Position numbers and translations under genes: made by a program
Source of the DNA: Minisyncoccota bacterium
GTDB lineage: Bacteria; Patescibacteriota; Minisyncoccia; Phycocordibacterales; JAQTLZ01
DNA: 64,000 nt
Direction of reading: 5' to 3'
Assembly: GCA_028711065.1 (NCBI GenBank)
Contig: JAQTSY010000004.1
Span: 34,522-98,521 of the forward strand
Notes under the pieces: model-generated
What the model was told of the DNA's origin: nothing
Database searches by the model: none
The model's input: only the letters and a program-made list of their open reading frames with translations
In this document: positions 3,271 through 47,270 of the stretch, piece after piece
Numbering within the stretch: position 1 is the stretch's first letter
Layout: every line of letters begins with the position of its first letter

Positions 3271-5817
3271 TCATTGAATCATGAAGGAAACTGAAGTTTC
3301 CGACTTATTTTGGGCAGCGTCATACGCGACGGCCTTTAGGGTGTTTTGTCCTTGTACGAAATTTGAATCTTTCGGGACAAATGCGAAGGAGAAGGGTTCT
3401 CCCGTGCTCGAACCAAGATAGCCATCATTCAAAAAATACTCTATTTGTGAAAGATCGAAATGCCCAGAGTGCGATACTCCGACAATGATTCGGTCGCTTG
3501 ATTGATGAACACTTCCCTGAAGTGGGCTGGTGATAGTGATTTGAGGTGCAAAAGCCGGGTTGTGGATAGGATCAGTTTCTGTGGGCACAATTCCTCCCTC
3601 GGCAATACCTTGTCCGGTTACCCACTTCCTCACGGCGTATTCCCAGTGTGAAAATTGAGGATCATTGTCTGGATTTGCGGGTCTTCCTCCAGTCGGGTTA
3701 TTTTTATCTATCCAATAGAGAATAGAGTGGATGTCCGGCACAGCGCGTTCCTCTCGAAGTTCTGGCGGAGTAAATTCTGTAGCGACTTTGCCCGAAATTT
3801 TATCTACGAAATACGTTTGACCTCCTTGCCATATCCCCCGCATTGGAGGAGCAAGACCTGAAAGATCCTCAAATGCCGGCTTTTTAAAGTTTTCTACTGG
3901 GAGCTGTTTCAAGGCCTCCGTCATAAATGCGCTCCACATCGGTGCGACAACAAGTCCCGCCACTTTCTTTTCCATCGGACGGTTGTCGTTGTTTCCAGCC
4001 CACGCTCCGACAACTAAATGAGGAGTGTATCCCACTATCCACGTATCTCGGTAGTCGTTTGTAGTACCGGTTTTTGCAGCGACATCTCTTCCTTCAAAAT
4101 AAAGAACAGAATGTTTTCCATAGGTTCCTGAGCGTGCGTCATCGTCCGAGAGGATGCTCGATATTTTAAGCGCGGATTGTTCAGGAAGCGCTTCTGTCGG
4201 TCGCAATTCTTCTTTTTCTAGTACTTGCCCATTATGATCTCTCACCTCAAGAATGCTCTGGTAAGGATTTCTCACTCCGTTATTTGCGAAGACTCCATAA
4301 GCACTTGTCAGTTCGAGTGGAGAAACCTCTGCGCCTCCGAGAACCAAAGTAAGGCCGTAATTATCAGGATTGGTAAGGCTTGTGATACCGAGATCTTGAG
4401 CAGTTTTGATCGAATTCTTAATTCCAGCCAAATACAACGTCTCAATTGAAGGAATGTTTCTTGATTCAGCAAGAGCTCTTCGCAAGCTCAAAGGTCCTTT
4501 GAATTGATCATCGTAGTTTGACGGCTTGTAACAAGCTGAATCAGGATGTTTCGGTGTCCCGTCGGGGTTGCATTCGCTTGAAAATTCAGTCGGAAGATCG
4601 AAAAGGACTGTTTCAGGCTGGTATCCCTCATTGAATGCGGTTGCGTACACAATAGGTTTGAATGCTGATCCTGGCTGACGTAGTGCAGTAGTGACATTGA
4701 AATTGCCGTCGATTTTTTTATCAAAGTAATCTCTGGAACCAACCATTGCGAGAATGTCTCCCGTTGTAGGGTCGATGGCTACCATCGCAGCATTTTCCGC
4801 GTTAAATTTTTTCTGATTTTCAAGCGCGAATTTTTTTACAATTTCTTCCGCTTTCTGTTGAAGACCGTAATCAAGAGTTGTGATAACTTTCAATCCTCCT
4901 GCCTGCAGTGTGTCTGCTCCATATTTTTTCTCGAGAAGATTCGTGACATAAGTGACGAAATGAGGAGCTCTAATTCCTGTTGGTTCTTGGGGGAGAAAAG
5001 TGACCACTTCCGCCTTTGCCTCGTTGTATTCATCTTGGTTTATGAATTTATTTTGGAGCATCTTCTCGAGTACCAAATTTTTCCTCTGTTCAAGCTGATC
5101 CCTGTTCTTTCCATAGGGAGAGAAAAAAGTCGGTGCTTTGAGAAGTGATGCTAGGTAAGCGCCTTGCGCGACAGTTAAATCCGACGCATTTTTTCCAAAA
5201 AAAGTCTGGCTTGCCTCCTCAACTCCATAAATATTGCCTCCAAACGGGCTTTCGTTGAGATAGAGTGTGAGAATGGAATCTTTGTCCATGACTCGCTCGA
5301 GCTTGATCGCAAGCACCCACTCTTTGATCTTGCGGGTGATTGTCTGCTCTGGGGTGAGAATGGAATTTTTAATAACCTGTTGGGTGATAGTTGACCCGCC
5401 TTGGCTTAATTTAAGTGAGGCGATATTTACCAAGAAGGCACGGAGTATTGCCGTAGGCTCAATTCCTCCGTGTTGATAGAATCCGGCATCTTCAATAGCA
5501 ACAACCGCATTTTTTACGTTTTTTGATATTTCACTTGAAGGGACACTGTCTCTCTTTACTCCTTGATGTATGTCATAGAGAAGAATTTTACCCGTGCGGT
5601 CATATATTTTTGTCGATTGGCTTACGGTGCGAGTTTCAAACGTATTTAGATTTGGCATTTCCAAAGTGGAAATCCATATAATAAACGCGCCTGCGCCTAT
5701 GAAGGAAACAGCTAAACAAATAATGAGAATTTCACGAAATCGCTTCTTTTGTGTAAAACGAAGAATTTTTTTCAGGATCTGCATAGAAGCTATAATAGCA
5801 TATACCGGAGAGTTCAA
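3271..5817 (-). CDS. class A penicillin-binding protein (transglycosylase/transpeptidase, PBP1A family)
   Basis: 848 aa; N-terminal TM anchor, GT51 motifs (EDAGFYQHGG, GGSTITQQ), transpeptidase SxxK/SxN/KTG (KTGTTND), C-terminal extra beta-rich domain. Confidence 0.9.
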   Translation of the reverse strand: MNSPVYAIIASMQILKKILRFTQKKRFREILIICLAVSFIGAGAFIIWISTLEMPNLNTFETRTVSQSTKIYDRTGKILLYDIHQGVKRDSVPSSEISKNVKNAVVAIEDAGFYQHGGIEPTAILRAFLVNIASLKLSQGGSTITQQVIKNSILTPEQTITRKIKEWVLAIKLERVMDKDSILTLYLNESPFGGNIYGVEEASQTFFGKNASDLTVAQGAYLASLLKAPTFFSPYGKNRDQLEQRKNLVLEKMLQNKFINQDEYNEAKAEVVTFLPQEPTGIRAPHFVTYVTNLLEKKYGADTLQAGGLKVITTLDYGLQQKAEEIVKKFALENQKKFNAENAAMVAIDPTTGDILAMVGSRDYFDKKIDGNFNVTTALRQPGSAFKPIVYATAFNEGYQPETVLFDLPTEFSSECNPDGTPKHPDSACYKPSNYDDQFKGPLSLRRALAESRNIPSIETLYLAGIKNSIKTAQDLGITSLTNPDNYGLTLVLGGAEVSPLELTSAYGVFANNGVRNPYQSILEVRDHNGQVLEKEELRPTEALPEQSALKISSILSDDDARSGTYGKHSVLYFEGRDVAAKTGTTNDYRDTWIVGYTPHLVVGAWAGNNDNRPMEKKVAGLVVAPMWSAFMTEALKQLPVENFKKPAFEDLSGLAPPMRGIWQGGQTYFVDKISGKVATEFTPPELREERAVPDIHSILYWIDKNNPTGGRPANPDNDPQFSHWEYAVRKWVTGQGIAEGGIVPTETDPIHNPAFAPQITITSPLQGSVHQSSDRIIVGVSHSGHFDLSQIEYFLNDGYLGSSTGEPFSFAFVPKDSNFVQGQNTLKAVAYDAAQNKSETSVSFMIQ

Positions 5818-21051: not shown

Positions 21052-21152
21052 AGAGCAGATTTTATTTTGCAGCAGGGGCATCTTTCCTTACAGGAACGGT
21101 ATAGGTTTCCCATTTTTTCGAATGAATACATCCTCAAAAATATGGGAGAACC

Positions 21153-21241
21153 TTTTCGATCCCTGCCCGCATCGTGCTTCGGCACGATGCTTGGGCGCAC
21201 AACAAAAAATCCGCTTTCGCGGAAATTTTTTGTTGTGCGCC
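21153..21241 (-). repeat. tRNA-Lys trailer palindrome element (inverted tRNA 3' fragment + inserted hairpin + central hairpin)
   Basis: TTCGATCCCTGC|hairpin GCATCGTGCTTCGGCACGATGC|TGGGCGCACAAC + AAAAAATCCGCTTTCGCGGAAATTTTTT + GTTGTGCGCC overlapping tRNA 3' end; same architecture as 38887-38976. Confidence 0.7.
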
Positions 21242-21308
21242 CAGCAGGGATCGAACCTGCGACCTTCTCCTTAAAAGGGAGCTGCTCTACCAGCTGAGCT
21301 ATGGGCGC
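21236..21308 (-). tRNA. tRNA-Lys(TTT)
   Basis: GCGCCCATAGCTCAGCTGGTAGAGCAGCTCCCTTTTAAGGAGAAGGTCGCAGGTTCGATCCCTGCTGGGCGCA; cloverleaf, anticodon loop CTTTTAA. Confidence 0.9.
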
Positions 21309-21385: not shown

Positions 21386-21859
21386 ATGAAGAAAGAAGTA
21401 GCTGTAATCCTCCACAACATAAGAAGCGAGCAAAACGTCGGCTCAATTTTTCGTACCTCGGATGCTGCGGGTGTCTCAAAAATATATCTGACTGGCTATA
21501 CTCCCGCTCCTCTCGATACATTTGGCAGAAAGGTGAAGGGAATTGCGAAGACTGCTCTCGGTGCAGAAACATTTATTGCGTGGGAGAAAATAAAAAACCC
21601 AGCCACGGTTTTTTCCAAACTTAAAAAAACCGGATTTAAAATTATTGCTATCGAGCAAGACAAGAAAGCAGTTGATTATAAAAAAATAAAAATTGTTTCA
21701 AAAATGGCCTTCGTTTTCGGGAATGAAGTAGAAGGAATTTCAAAATCGCTTTTACAAAAAGTGGATGAGATCGCTTTTATTCCAATGAAAGGTAAAAAAG
21801 AATCACTGAACGTTTCTGTATCAGCGGGAATCGCTTTATTTAGAATTCTAAAGATTTGA
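21386..21859 (+). CDS. SpoU/TrmH-family RNA 2'-O-methyltransferase
   Basis: 157 aa SPOUT fold; HNIRSEQNVGSIFRTSDAAG, C-terminal knot motifs. Confidence 0.8.
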   Translation: MKKEVAVILHNIRSEQNVGSIFRTSDAAGVSKIYLTGYTPAPLDTFGRKVKGIAKTALGAETFIAWEKIKNPATVFSKLKKTGFKIIAIEQDKKAVDYKKIKIVSKMAFVFGNEVEGISKSLLQKVDEIAFIPMKGKKESLNVSVSAGIALFRILKI

Positions 21860-37557: not shown

Positions 37558-37571
37558 AGAGGGGGACATAA

Positions 37572-37746
37572 AAAGAAAAACACCAACTGCTTGGTGTTTT
37601 TCTTTTGTGTGGTCAGGAATAATTTTGTTTTCGTCAAAACAAAATTTTCACGACCCTGCCTCGCGGTTTCGCATGTTTGCGAAACATCGCTCCGGCTGGC
37701 ACATATAAGAAAAAGAACCAAGCAGTTGGTTCTTTTTCTTATATGT
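37572..37746. repeat. cluster of four hairpins between pil operon end and tRNA-Arg
   Basis: GAAAAACACCAA-CTGC-TTGGTGTTTTTC (37572-37599); AATTTTGTTTT-CGTC-AAAACAAAATT; TTTCGCA-TGTT-TGCGAAA; 21-bp perfect stem ACATATAAGAAAAAGAACCAA-GCAG-TTGGTTCTTTTTCTTATATGT (37701-37746) abutting tRNA 3' end; first and last hairpins are related (CTGC/GCAG loops). Confidence 0.8.
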
Positions 37747-38797: not shown

Positions 38798-38886
38798 AGA
38801 AACCCTGCGGGAGTTTCGACCCTTACAGGGTCAGTACCCCGATTGGATTTTTTTGCGCGGTCACGCGCTAGAAAAAATGCACAATC

Positions 38887-38976
38887 GGGCTTCGAATCCC
38901 TCACACGATGCGCCCCCGCGCATCGTTAGGGCGCACAATAAAAAATCCGCCTTCGCGGAAATTTTTTATTGTGCGC
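38887..38976 (-). repeat. tRNA-Val trailer palindrome element (same family as tRNA-Lys trailer)
   Basis: GGGCTTCGAATCCCTCA|hairpin CACGATGCGCCCCCGCGCATCGT|TAGGGCGCACAAT + AAAAAATCCGCCTTCGCGGAAATTTTTT + ATTGTGCGCC overlapping tRNA 3' end. Confidence 0.7.
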
Positions 38977-39044
38977 CCTGAGGGATTCGAACCCCCGACC
39001 TTGTCAGTGTAAATGACCTGCTCTACCAACTGAGCTAAGGGCGC
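38972..39044 (-). tRNA. tRNA-Val(TAC)
   Basis: GCGCCCTTAGCTCAGTTGGTAGAGCAGGTCATTTACACTGACAAGGTCGGGGGTTCGAATCCCTCAGGGCGCA. Confidence 0.88.
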
Positions 39045-39162
39045 AAAAGCCCAGAAACTTAAACTGCTTTAAGTTTTTGCGGACTTGTGCGAGCCGGAGC
39101 CATATTTTTCTAACAAGAAAAAAAGGCGAGGCGTGGTCAGGGAATTTTGGTTGCGACGGCAA

Positions 39163-39188
39163 ACAAAATATCCGTGACCATCACACAA
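39163..39188. repeat. right arm of imperfect inverted repeat bracketing tRNA-Val locus
   Basis: CAAAATATCCGTGACCATCACACAAT. Confidence 0.5.
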
Positions 39189-39215
39189 TAATCCATTTTT
39201 ACCTTTCAATCAAGG

Positions 39216-39962
39216 TTACGCCTTCTTTTGAATCCACCTTGCTACTATTTCATTCGCTTCTTTTTGAAGCTCTGGATACTTCGAAAGACTATGCGGGGCA
39301 TTTTTTATAAGCGCGTGTTCGAGTTGTGTCAGATCCGGTACTGCATTTTTGAAGTTAAGAATTGTCTGGTGGGGGACCATTTCATCTTTTTCCGACTCGA
39401 TAATAAGAATTTCTCCGGGAAATGTATGAATGGCTCGCAAAGCGAGTGTGGATTCAGAATCTCTTTTGTGTTCACGCCATTCATTTATTTTCGCTTGCTC
39501 GAAGATCATTCCTTTGGGCTTTTCGAATGTTTCGTCGGGATAATCTGCCGGAGCTCGGAGTATTATGAAATTCAGATTTCTTTTTTGGCTAAGGAGGAGC
39601 GCGAGGTATCCTCCAAAAGAGCTTCCGCTTACTCCAATTTTTTCTGTATCTACTTCAGACCGTTTCGCAAGGAAATCATATCCGAGGATTACATCATCGA
39701 GAAAATCTTTGCGGGAGAGGGAATTTTTATCACCCGCGCTTTTCCCATGCCCTCGTAAATCTAAAGTGAGACAGATGAAGCCGAATTTCTCCGCAAGCAT
39801 TTTTGCAGTATCAAACATCCTCTCTTGGGTGCTGTTCCATCCATGAAGAAGCAAAAGAGCAGGCCTTTTTGTTCCTTTTTCCTTCGGGAGGAAGACATTT
39901 CCTTCAAGTGTGTAGCCATTTCCCTTAATCTCTCTTCTTTCCATATTTTGATTGTAACTCAC
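39216..39962 (-). CDS. alpha/beta hydrolase (dienelactone hydrolase/S9-like)
   Basis: LLLLHGWNST...GVSGSSFGGY (GxSxG), C-terminal His. Confidence 0.7.
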   Translation of the reverse strand: MSYNQNMERREIKGNGYTLEGNVFLPKEKGTKRPALLLLHGWNSTQERMFDTAKMLAEKFGFICLTLDLRGHGKSAGDKNSLSRKDFLDDVILGYDFLAKRSEVDTEKIGVSGSSFGGYLALLLSQKRNLNFIILRAPADYPDETFEKPKGMIFEQAKINEWREHKRDSESTLALRAIHTFPGEILIIESEKDEMVPHQTILNFKNAVPDLTQLEHALIKNAPHSLSKYPELQKEANEIVARWIQKKA

Positions 39963-40170
39963 GAAATAGATTGACCCTAATTTTTCTTTGAAGAAAGTTG
40001 ATTTTAGCTAGTATATAAGCCGTATTTTTCAGCTTTTTATGCTTGACATTTGGGTCATAATATGCTATCATTATACCAGAACCTGCAATCCTTTTTATCT
40101 GTCTGTAGTCGGCCTGCGTGGCTGATGAGGATGATTGGGACCAGGGAGACCTTTGTGAGGAGTGTGAGTT

Positions 40171-41175
40171 ATGGTGCAGCAAATTGCAGTTCGGCCTATC
40201 GATGTCGTTGTGGAAGCCCTCAGGGCTGCCCGCAAAGCCGATGGTGCCGTGAATGAGGTCGGTTCGCCGATCGAAGAGCGGAGCTGGAACACTGATGTGG
40301 AGGGGGGCGCGACGTGGAAATCCATGTTCGGCAACCTCCATTTGCAGGTTTCCGGGTTCCGGCTCGAATTCCCGGAAGCCCAAGCCCAAAACATGTGGGC
40401 GGCGGCGAATATCGACAGGGGCGACAGGCCCTCGGCGGTTCGCGTGTTGCTCAGCATGCAGGCTGTGGAAGGCGCGAAGGTGCTCCACTGCGCCGCAGGT
40501 GAAGTCACTGATGTGACGGCTGGCAGTATGCCGGATCTCGTCGTGCCGGTGGTCTACGATGGTGCGGCGCCCCGCACGCGGGAGAAGGACAAGGACAACA
40601 TCGATATCGTGATTCTGCAACGGAACGGAATGTTCGTTCAGTTGCAGGTCTCGGTCATCACGCGCGGCGGAGTGTTCTACGTCGGAGTCCAGGAGATTTT
40701 CGCGGGTCAGGTCGTTCGGACCAATGCCTCGAAAGTCTTGAAGCTTGGACTCAAGAAGGAGACGATCAACGGCGCACAGGTGGGACTCATCGTCCCGTTG
40801 TTTGAGGGCAACGCCTACCCCGGCGCCGATTACTTGAATGTCTTCCCCCGCATGGGACCGAAGGTGATCAAGTACGCTGTTGCGCACGAGATGTGCGTTC
40901 CGCTCTCCGAGTGCGTCGTTGCCAAGTGGGCGCCGGAAGAGACGCCGTTGCCGCCGAATTTGAAGGCGGAAGACGGCTGGATGAGGGCGGTGGTCCGCTC
41001 CTACAACTTGGTCACTGGTTGCGGCCATCTGTTGTGCGACGACGGCGTGGATTGCTTCCTTCATTTCAGTGTGATCGGCGGGGATTTCCCTTCCGTTCCG
41101 CCCATGAAGGCCGTGGCGGTCCAGCACTGGTTGCGCGACAATCGTCGCAAGGCGCTCAAGTTCCAGAGCCTGTAA
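40171..41175 (+). CDS. GC-rich hypothetical protein with C-terminal cold-shock-like OB domain
   Basis: 334 aa; C-terminal GWMRAVVRSYNLVTGCGHLLCDDGVDCFLHFSVIGGDF resembles CspA core (KGxVKWFN..GFGFI..DG.DVFVHFSAI); TTGACA-17-TATCAT promoter 40053-40087, GAGGAG RBS; own terminator; long antisense ORF 39925-41241 judged artefact. Confidence 0.5.
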   Translation: MVQQIAVRPIDVVVEALRAARKADGAVNEVGSPIEERSWNTDVEGGATWKSMFGNLHLQVSGFRLEFPEAQAQNMWAAANIDRGDRPSAVRVLLSMQAVEGAKVLHCAAGEVTDVTAGSMPDLVVPVVYDGAAPRTREKDKDNIDIVILQRNGMFVQLQVSVITRGGVFYVGVQEIFAGQVVRTNASKVLKLGLKKETINGAQVGLIVPLFEGNAYPGADYLNVFPRMGPKVIKYAVAHEMCVPLSECVVAKWAPEETPLPPNLKAEDGWMRAVVRSYNLVTGCGHLLCDDGVDCFLHFSVIGGDFPSVPPMKAVAVQHWLRDNRRKALKFQSL

Positions 41176-41204
41176 CGCACAGGAAAACATCAGCAAATAA
41201 TATG

Positions 41205-41234
41205 GCGGAAACATGAAAAGGTTATGTTTCCGCC
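41205..41234 (+). terminator. intrinsic terminator GGCGGAAACAT-GAAAAGGTT-ATGTTTCCGCC + TTTT
   Basis: 11-bp stem right after 40171-41175 stop. Confidence 0.8.
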
Positions 41235-41295
41235 TTTTCATTTGTCCGGATTTTTTCGATGTCGAGAAGACAATTATTTGTTACTATTAAACACA

Positions 41296-47217: not shown

Positions 47218-47270
47218 CAAAAAGAACGCCGAAAGGCGTTTTTCTTAATTTGTGCTAAAATAGCAGTACT

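Follow-up and report, generated by a model that had tools for sequence, protein, structure and literature searches.

Mirrored tRNA 3' ends behind tRNA-Lys and tRNA-Val of a Minisyncoccota bacterium: a candidate small tRNA-targeted insertion element

Transfer RNA (tRNA) genes are classic landing sites of large integrative elements, which usually enter them by site-specific recombination, using tyrosine integrases and a crossover in the T-loop or the anticodon loop; phage mv4, for example, reportedly integrates at the 3' end of a tRNA-Ser gene. Here we describe a much smaller structure behind two tRNA genes of a Minisyncoccota bacterium, in a stretch of 64,000 nt from contig JAQTSY010000004.1 (positions 34,522 to 98,521; hereafter the window). 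The genes for tRNA-Lys(UUU) (21235-21308, minus strand) and tRNA-Val(UAC) (38971-39044, minus strand) are each followed by a long palindrome, in which a terminator hairpin comes first and the tRNA 3' end is then repeated in inverted form, with a second hairpin splitting the repeat. For the reading that this palindrome is the tRNA-proximal end of a non-coding, non-autonomous, T-loop-targeted insertion element of ~175 nt, present in a subset of Paceibacteria (Candidate Phyla Radiation, CPR), we judge the balance to be about even.

The structure resembles tRNA-targeting integrative elements in lying in the 3' part of a tRNA gene that stays intact through a replacement 3' end, in having, clearly so in relatives, what would be the displaced end as a direct repeat at its far boundary, and in its T-loop junctions and nested arrays. 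It differs in measuring ~175 nt rather than kilobases, in having no integrase or other gene, in carrying a terminator and a hairpin-split inverted tRNA end, and in that related copies serve at least three tRNAs. No integrase of its own was found beside it, and the element has no room for a gene.

Folded attachment sites, which include integron attC, form a second group for comparison. In CTXphi, the functional attachment site, attP(+), arises when two dif-like sites, attP1 and attP2, which face in opposite directions at a distance of 90 bp, pair within one strand (PMC4246890). The structure described here likewise has two inverted target-like sites, a short spacer and an imperfect hairpin with an unpaired insert. 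As integrated, a site is followed by a loop, the inverted site, the body and a further site, and the fold has 19- and 12-nt arms around a 14-nt tip (z ~-13.5). However, the target is a tRNA T-loop rather than dif or attI, the element is tiny, neither a single-stranded stage nor a phage or recombinase is known for it, and the resemblance is one of layout only.

Repetitive extragenic palindromes and bacterial interspersed mosaic elements (REP/BIME), as well as miniature inverted-repeat transposable elements (MITE), are also short, hairpin-rich, non-coding and intergenic, are often found beside terminators and occur in several copies (PMC3733652; PMC3184786), but the present element lacks the GTAG/CGTC tag, terminal inverted repeats and a short target duplication, and was seen only at tRNA gene ends. 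A REP/BIME identity, which would call for a 20-40-nt imperfect palindrome in tens to hundreds of copies, was rejected because there are two copies in 64 kb and no tag; conservation of a motif is limited to RGTAY between two hairpins. A MITE identity was rejected on the ends, one of which lies inside the tRNA while the other is T-loop-like, and on the duplications, which comprise ~17 to 55 nt of tRNA sequence rather than 2-10 bp. In kind, the closest relatives of the element are the tRNA-targeting integrative elements and the folded-hairpin attachment sites, although it has neither the integrase nor the size of an island, and lacks marks that define MITE and REP repeats.

Layout of the palindrome at tRNA-Lys and tRNA-Val

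The window has a G+C content of 44% and contains seven tRNA genes, none of which encodes CCA. The two that concern us were found by ARAGORN and match the Rfam tRNA model, tRNA-Lys with 71.1 bits. On the tRNA strand, tRNA-Lys is followed by CAAC, the hairpin AAAAAATTTCCGCGAAAGCGGATTTTTT and GTTG, and next by GTGCGCCCA, an exact match, in reverse complement, to the acceptor 3' strand with the discriminator and a C. After this comes a 25-nt insert containing a perfect hairpin of 9 bp with a 4-nt loop, and last GCAGGGATCGAA, which repeats the T-loop and the T-stem 3' strand of the same tRNA in reverse complement. The palindrome accordingly has inverted arms of 19 nt (21192-21210 and 21225-21243) and outer inverted arms of 12 nt (21155-21166 and 21244-21255), both matching at 100%. 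Three parts can be distinguished: the inverted acceptor 3' strand with discriminator and 4-nt trailer (P1, 21192-21203; TGGGCGCACAAC on the plus strand), the inserted hairpin (hp2, 21169-21190; GCATCGTGC-TTCG-GCACGATGC, its nine perfect pairs joining 21169-21177 to 21182-21190), and the inverted T-loop and T-stem 3' strand (P2, 21155-21166; TTCGATCCCTGC).

At tRNA-Val the mirror block occupies 38887-38939, with P2 at 38887-38903, hp2 at 38905-38926 (ACGATGCGC-CCCC-GCGCATCGT, 38905-38913 pairing with 38918-38926) and P1 plus trailer at 38928-38939. The inverted arms match over 19 nt at 100% (38928-38946 and 38961-38979) and the outer arms over 17 nt at 94% (38887-38903 and 38979-38995). At both genes the mirror is free of mismatches over the 21 nt that run from the T-loop to the base past the discriminator, and the insert, made up of the 22-nt hairpin and three linker bases, sits exactly between mirrored tRNA positions 65 and 66. 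This anatomy, a 28-nt hairpin between inverted and hairpin-split copies of the tRNA 3' end, had been recognized at tRNA-Lys in a sequence-only reading of the window, which also assigned the Lys and Val copies to one family; both views hold, the layout being common and each copy being built from the sequence of its own tRNA. The same reading placed three differences in the central hairpin and ended the element at 21153, and here it needs amendment. The 28-mers differ at one position only (T or C in the loop), the remaining two differences forming a compensated flank pair (CAAC/GTTG vs CAAT/ATTG), and the structure extends to ~21070 at tRNA-Lys and ~38803 at tRNA-Val, taking in two further hairpins that align between the copies.

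These hairpins make up the body of the element. As delimited from folds, the Lys body (21083-21153) consists of hairpin hpA (21083-21097, loop TTACA), a GGTAT linker and the long hairpin hp3 (21103-21153), and it aligns with the Val copy and with a copy in a sister genome (locus L018) through compensated stems and conserved CCTTACAGG and GTA motifs. Beyond it, a putative decayed direct copy of the tRNA end (21070-21082, minus strand) reads GATGCCCCTGCTG, compared with GATCCCTGCTG in the T-loop and T-stem 3' strand of the tRNA. The corresponding Val segment (38803-38889) comprises hpA (38818-38832), AGTAC (38833-38837), hp3 (38838-38889) and a putative direct-repeat remnant (38803-38822, minus strand; GGGTCGAAACTCCCGCAGGG vs GGTTCGAATCCCTCAGGG in the tRNA). 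The U-UAC-A loop of hpA resembles a tRNA-Val anticodon loop, and a tRNA-like gene built on it was considered; there was no acceptor partner or support from tRNA detectors, the same loop occurs behind tRNA-Lys and tRNA-Arg, and the idea was rejected.

Chance is excluded as the source of the 28-mer pair and of the folding. The 28-mer occurs twice in the window, against an expectation of 0.00 from shuffles, and the two DNA strands of the region fold equally well, with energies of -52.7 and -53.5 kcal/mol and z-scores of -13 to -14. Among ~30 other tRNA genes examined, none had both mirror segments, and none had an acceptor mirror upstream.

The central 28-mer (AAAAAATCCGCTTTCGCGGAAATTTTTT, 21204-21231; second copy 38940-38967, its loop reading CTTC where the first has TTTC) is, by its sequence, an ordinary bidirectional intrinsic terminator. 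It stands 4 nt past the tRNA, at tRNA-Lys between convergent genes, and has a 5-bp G+C stem and a tetraloop with an A-tract on one side and a T-tract on the other. A terminator scan matched 21210-21223 and 38946-38959 on both strands, and the terminator hairpins fold at -25.6 and -23.3 kcal/mol. The earlier remark that the palindrome does not look like a simple terminator therefore fails for its centre, which fits the textbook pattern of G+C stem, tetraloop, T-tract and A-tract directly after a tRNA. The element departs from such terminators in that its complementarity continues past the T-tract by 12 nt (acceptor) and 12-17 nt (T-arm), which termination does not need. A transcript ended at the U-tract folds as a cloverleaf plus a terminator hairpin and, because the mirror arm is located beyond the U-tract, a normally terminated tRNA transcript would be without it. 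In the cell today, the element most likely acts only as a two-way terminator, with the mirror arm transcribed on read-through alone.

Whether all copies of the core are associated with tRNA genes was a question that the sequence-only reading had left to be checked, and the answer differs between the parts of the structure. A scan of 185,579 species-representative genomes with a relaxed form of the core gave 17 matches, and because 15 of these had no tRNA nearby, the core is generic and no marker of the mirror family; the mirror architecture, on the other hand, is tRNA-specific. A scan of viral contigs for the core returned no match. Among the 15 is an identical 30-mer between ordinary genes in a metagenome-assembled genome of Defluviitaleaceae (L002:1916-1945), an unrelated Firmicute. 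The only other tRNA-linked match is in UR.bin240 (Patescibacteria), where the 28-mer stands behind tRNA-Lys(UUU) (L007:1325-1352 / L003:80-107) in the opposite orientation and without a mirror. Plain tRNA terminators of the clade are themselves long perfect palindromes whose arms include the last 4-5 nt of the tRNA (GCAC...GTGC), as at 37702-37745 and 47219-47262 in the window, L037:2408-2452 and L045:9539-9585.

Recurrence and pairing among relatives

Syntenic loci of relatives, designated here by L numbers, were fetched through homologues of TrmH (gene at 21386-21859 in the window), of a hydrolase and of RuvA, together with one metagenome pattern scan. Counts of tRNA genes in the fetched loci are lower bounds, ARAGORN having missed a tRNA-Lys that is visible by eye at L033:~5680-5747 (..CCCTTTTAAGG..GGTTCGATCCCGAGCGGGCGGAC). 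The mirror design, with a constant spacing of 34 nt, was found at five contiguous loci: the Lys and Val loci of the window, tRNA-Lys of a sister species whose TrmH is 90% identical (L018/L019), tRNA-Arg(GCG) of a genome whose TrmH is 82% identical (L020), and tRNA-Lys on a Hainich groundwater contig (L026). In a further case (L024/L045) the design is split from its tRNA-Lys by a block of ~270 nt, and the organism is distant, with a RuvA ~48% identical to that of the window. The design is present in at least four genomes, plus this interrupted copy. At every copy the mirror shows 0-1 mismatches to its own tRNA in 21 nt, and the host tRNAs all score as full tRNAs. Because the design is found in independent assemblies, in NCBI and ENA, it is no assembly artefact.

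An alignment of tRNA end, mirror segments and hp2 from the five contiguous loci yielded 30 pairs and 150 cells, of which 98% are paired. Changes on both sides were seen in 16 of the 30 pairs and one-sided changes in none, and all nine pairs of hp2 covary among the five loci. These values were reached by 0 of 500 shuffles, and slid registers did not come close. Not one of the 150 cells is a G-U pair, which, together with the equal folding of both DNA strands, points to complementarity that is maintained at the DNA level. In L020, the mirror of tRNA-Arg is an exact copy of the acceptor 3' strand and not of the G-U-forming 5' strand.

Such a pattern fits template switching, which creates and maintains perfect hairpins (PMC8794818) and homogenises the arms of inverted repeats (PMC8604942). 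By this route alone, with no mobile element, the palindrome would have grown in place at the tRNA terminator hairpin as the adjacent tRNA end was copied in reverse complement; selection would act on the tRNA arm and the other arm would follow, the extra hairpins would be products of further switches, and the only function would be termination. As in documented template-switch hairpins (PMC8794818; PMC8604942), the neighbouring sequence is copied in reverse complement, the stems are perfect, and differences are multi-base, compensated and free of G-U; the 98% Watson-Crick pairing, the 16 double changes without a single one-sided change, and the equal folding of both strands are all in keeping with it. 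Further agreement comes from the palindromes at sites lacking the element, which include the last 4-5 nt of the tRNA (GCAC...GTGC in L037 Lys and L045 Arg, GTCCG in L033, GTGCC at tRNA-Arg(TCT) of the window), and from the reversed 28-mer behind tRNA-Lys of UR.bin240, which could be a spacer inversion. Hairpin hp2 also agrees with it: between the window and L018, identity is 98-100% over the tRNA, the terminator and the tRNA promoter (100% for tRNA plus terminator) and ~85% in coding DNA, while hp2 with the adjoining end of the body is 52% identical; hp2 has been swapped outright between close relatives, its flanks staying 100% identical. However, switching alone does not predict a fixed insertion point, and it leaves unexplained the body sequence shared across tRNA loci and genomes, the long stretches of tRNA-end sequence repeated directly at the far boundary (both described below), and the constant geometry of hp2 (9 bp, 4-nt loop, position) in genomes as distant as RuvA of ~48% identity. 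We consider it unlikely as the entire explanation; it probably contributes to the arms rather than accounting for the whole structure.

Selection on an RNA is the other way in which compensated pairing might be kept, and the strand of the tRNA is the first to consider. The sequence-only reading had noted that the trailer could pair with the tRNA 3' half, and this proved right: on read-through the pairing covers ~31 nt, and in silico the resulting hairpin (-90.3 and -94.7 kcal/mol, z ~-10) is preferred to the cloverleaf. A read-through trailer would thereby bind the T-loop, T-stem and acceptor 3' strands and trap the precursor in a 31-bp three-way-junction hairpin, serving as a signal for processing or decay (for example by RNase III) or as a control on tRNA output. 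The compensated changes do keep the pairing across Lys, Val and Arg. Comparison of the strands by G-U counts and folding energies gave near-equal energies and a few U-G pairs in the body on the tRNA strand only, as at columns 123/139, which are U-G in three copies and C-G in one. In the Arg copy of L020, moreover, the tRNA strand has the weaker form of the central hairpin (-14.2 vs -18.4 kcal/mol), and there is a strong terminator past the end of the whole element. We nevertheless hold such a device to be distinctly improbable: its mirror arm is past the canonical terminator U-tract, the pairing takes in trailer bases and would destroy the tRNA fold, which is a cost and not a benefit, the total lack of G-U pairs in the alignment is unexpected for helices selected as RNA only, the same tRNA genes in close relatives do without the element, and no Rfam family matches it. 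With Rfam 15, only tRNAs passed the gathering thresholds, and relaxed scans returned generic long-hairpin matches of the microRNA type. An analogy with primer-binding sites was also rejected, the complementarity including genomic trailer bases and not CCA.

The opposite strand might instead encode a small RNA, or a 3'-untranslated element of the convergent gene, which would end at the shared terminator and mimic the T-loop, T-stem and acceptor 3' strand. The element does start ~20 nt (window Lys) or a few nt (L018) past the stop codon of a convergent gene, hp2 of the window Lys copy has a C(UUCG)G tetraloop on that strand, and the strand folds well (z = -5.7 and -6.2). No convergent gene precedes the Val copy, however, a terminator abuts the start of the element in L020 and leaves no room for a promoter, a conserved promoter motif was not found upstream, the acceptor-like strand has no partner on such an RNA, and folding energy shows no strand bias; we think an RNA of this kind very improbable. 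A split or permuted tRNA, or a tRNA pseudogene on this strand, was rejected as well, since ARAGORN and Infernal found nothing on the plus strand and the acceptor-like strand is without a partner.

Patchy presence, shared bodies and far-boundary repeats

Comparison of orthologous tRNA genes reveals that the presence of the element is patchy. tRNA-Lys is without an intact copy in L020 (where only a remnant is found), L022, L030, L033, L037 and L043, and tRNA-Val is without a copy in the sister genome (L041) and in L030, while tRNA-Arg(GCG) carries a copy in L020 and none in the window, L018, L024, L030, L037 or L043. Simple empty sites consist of the tRNA, a palindromic terminator and the next gene. 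Body sequence, in turn, is common to different tRNA loci. The Val body of the window (38816-38853) is identical at 38 of 38 positions to the body behind tRNA-Lys in the sister genome (L018), and the two remain identical through GGGTCGA, after which they split into Val-like and Lys-like sequence. In the more distant relatives, the bodies of L049 Arg, L049 Lys and L024 Lys have a mean column identity of 91%.

Locus L049, from a relative of the L024 organism (RuvA 85% identical), provides the clearest view of the far boundary. Three tRNAs in it have related insertions in the order tRNA, terminator, inverted T-loop core, body and direct repeat of the tRNA 3' end, the repeat matching at 19/19 positions for Ser (~55 nt including the terminator, by reading the sequence), 18/19 for Arg(GCG), with a second copy of 17/17 further out, and 18/19 for Lys. 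Distal direct repeats are likewise found in L024 (16/18) and L026 (14/15), and all of these lie above the 99th percentile of shuffles. At L049 Arg a single base separates the copy in the gene from the displaced one (CCTGC vs CCTAC). In the relatives the direct repeats start in the T-loop, and all right junctions directly follow a T-loop-like motif ending in CG or CGA (..GGGTCGA, ..GAGGCG or ..GTGACCG). The elements also form nested arrays behind tRNA genes, as repeated insertions would give.

In the window, the Lys remnant at 21070-21082 occupies the position equivalent to that of the strong direct repeats in L049, L024 and L026, and we propose that it is the displaced original tRNA end, an attR-like remnant. 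The distal segments of window-type copies have the cognate tRNA as their best match in five of five cases, clearly so for the window Val (23 vs 16) and Lys (17 vs 10) copies and marginally for the others.

Genes of mobile elements were seen in the relatives, namely a reverse transcriptase with a bAvd gene (resembling a diversity-generating retroelement), an rve-type transposase at a distance of ~1.4 kb from the tRNA-Lys array and, beside tRNA-Leu, a large serine recombinase (L049:5633-7058, L049:14043-14942 and L041:1-599); none of them adjoins a mirror element.

A second repeat family, Y, has the form GTGCGAGCCGGAGC, hairpin, GCGAGGCAGGGTCGTGAAAATTTTGTTTTGACGAAAACAAAATTATTCCTGACCACAA, and occupies the position of the mirror element at other tRNAs, its first 5 nt mirroring the tRNA end. 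In the window it is found at 37570-37702 (minus strand, behind tRNA-Arg(TCT)) and 39085-39190 (plus strand, upstream of tRNA-Val), and it also occurs in L020, L022, L033, L041, L043 and L049. Two well-supported hairpin domains contain compensated changes in 18 of 34 pairs, with one G-U pair conserved on one strand, and stretches of at least 46 nt are 100% identical between genomes whose TrmH proteins are only ~73% identical. Many loops of Y-type terminators contain the motif CTGC. No Rfam match was obtained for Y, and a reading of it as K-turn or box C/D was rejected on sequence that is off consensus.

A proposed tRNA-targeted insertion and its meaning

A recombination or insertion footprint specific to this lineage was among the possibilities offered by the sequence-only reading, and it is the one that the comparative evidence (patchiness, shared bodies and direct repeats) favours. 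Read along the tRNA strand, the proposed element would begin inside the T-loop and continue through the 3' strands of T-stem and acceptor to the discriminator and the 4-nt trailer, a segment that would constitute the present working tRNA end; on this proposal, the portion of tRNA-Lys 3' of the T-loop (~21235-21252) would be supplied by the element. The ordinary bidirectional intrinsic terminator (the 28-mer) would follow, then the inverted copy of the same tRNA end split by the 9-bp hairpin, the body of two further hairpins, and a T-loop-like end (..GGGTCGA), beyond which would lie the decayed direct copy of the original tRNA 3' end. The comparisons above establish how the element is laid out, where in the tRNA it sits, that the tRNA end is duplicated in relatives, that bodies are shared and that arrays are nested. 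For its movement we infer recombination: the element would enter by site-specific recombination in the T-loop and be mobilised in trans. Because no recombinase was found in or near it, it would be non-autonomous. With a new tRNA 3' end and a terminator provided by the element, the host would pay nothing for the insertion.

The mirror itself calls for a further step. Inverted copies around a terminator may be the fossil of a folded single-strand attachment site, and by our own derivation a folded hairpin of this kind, once integrated, would give the observed succession of site, loop, inverted site, body and site. This is, at low confidence, the most economical reading of the mirror. The perfect Watson-Crick arms would since have been kept, and partly extended, at the DNA level by template switching, which probably maintains and extends them; such a contribution would be in keeping with the perfection of the arms, with an hp2 that is exchanged as a whole, and with empty sites that have a GCAC/GTGC mirror of 4-5 nt.

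Several observations weigh against an insertion element. The sample amounts to ~9 loci from genomes seen only in part. In the window the direct copies are poor: that of tRNA-Lys, 158 nt downstream of the tRNA end, matches at 8/8 positions and falls below the shuffle threshold, and that of tRNA-Val matches at 15 of 20 positions in a gapped alignment and is borderline. L049 lacks the acceptor mirror P1 and, at one locus, hp2, so that the full mirror is not essential to the family but an elaboration within a lineage. T-loop sequences are themselves near-palindromic (GGTTCGAACC), so that short inverted T-loop cores are weak evidence when taken alone. A search of neighbouring open reading frames with Pfam, and of the annotated neighbours of L018, L020 and L022, revealed no integrase, transposase or other recombinase near any copy, and neither a free form nor a filled and an empty site from the same strain was seen among the loci. 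Finally, ordinary tRNA-targeting integration needs no inverted copy, and for one family to carry a 3' end and a mirror that fit each of three or four different tRNAs would require extra steps such as template switching or gene conversion.

The surroundings of the Val copy have features of their own. The acceptor stem of tRNA-Val in the window is Lys-like (GCGCCCT/AGGGCGC), whereas the sister species (L041:11512-11585) and a more distant relative (L030:18735-18808) have GGGCGAT/ATCGCCC. Overwriting of this acceptor by a Lys-type element was considered and dropped, the decayed direct copy already having the AGGG of the present acceptor. Gene order near tRNA-Val and tRNA-Arg(TCT) is rearranged between the window and the sister genome. 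Nearby, an island of 1.2 kb (40000-41200) has 52-60% G+C in a 44% G+C genome and long open reading frames on both strands (39925-41241, minus; 40171-41175, plus) without a Pfam match; on the corresponding flank of the hydrolase gene, the sister genome has a reading frame with an annotated cold-shock domain.

Literature searches returned nothing specific on an element of CPR bacteria that flanks tRNA genes. We put forward tentatively, as a possibility that is itself doubtful, that these copies represent an undescribed class of protein-less CPR elements of ~175 nt, which would home to tRNA T-loops as folded hairpins imitating the end of a tRNA gene, replace the tRNA 3' end, bring a terminator with them, nest, and be mobilised in trans by a tyrosine recombinase of the host or a phage. 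If this is true, the element would be the smallest such tRNA-site passenger known to us, and a recombinase activity as yet uncharacterised in CPR bacteria would be implied. The perfect, G-U-free and compensated stems also illustrate how covariation by itself may imitate an RNA structure under selection. In annotating these reduced genomes, the 3' flanks of tRNA genes would best be read as mosaics of such modules, and not as promoters or small-RNA genes.

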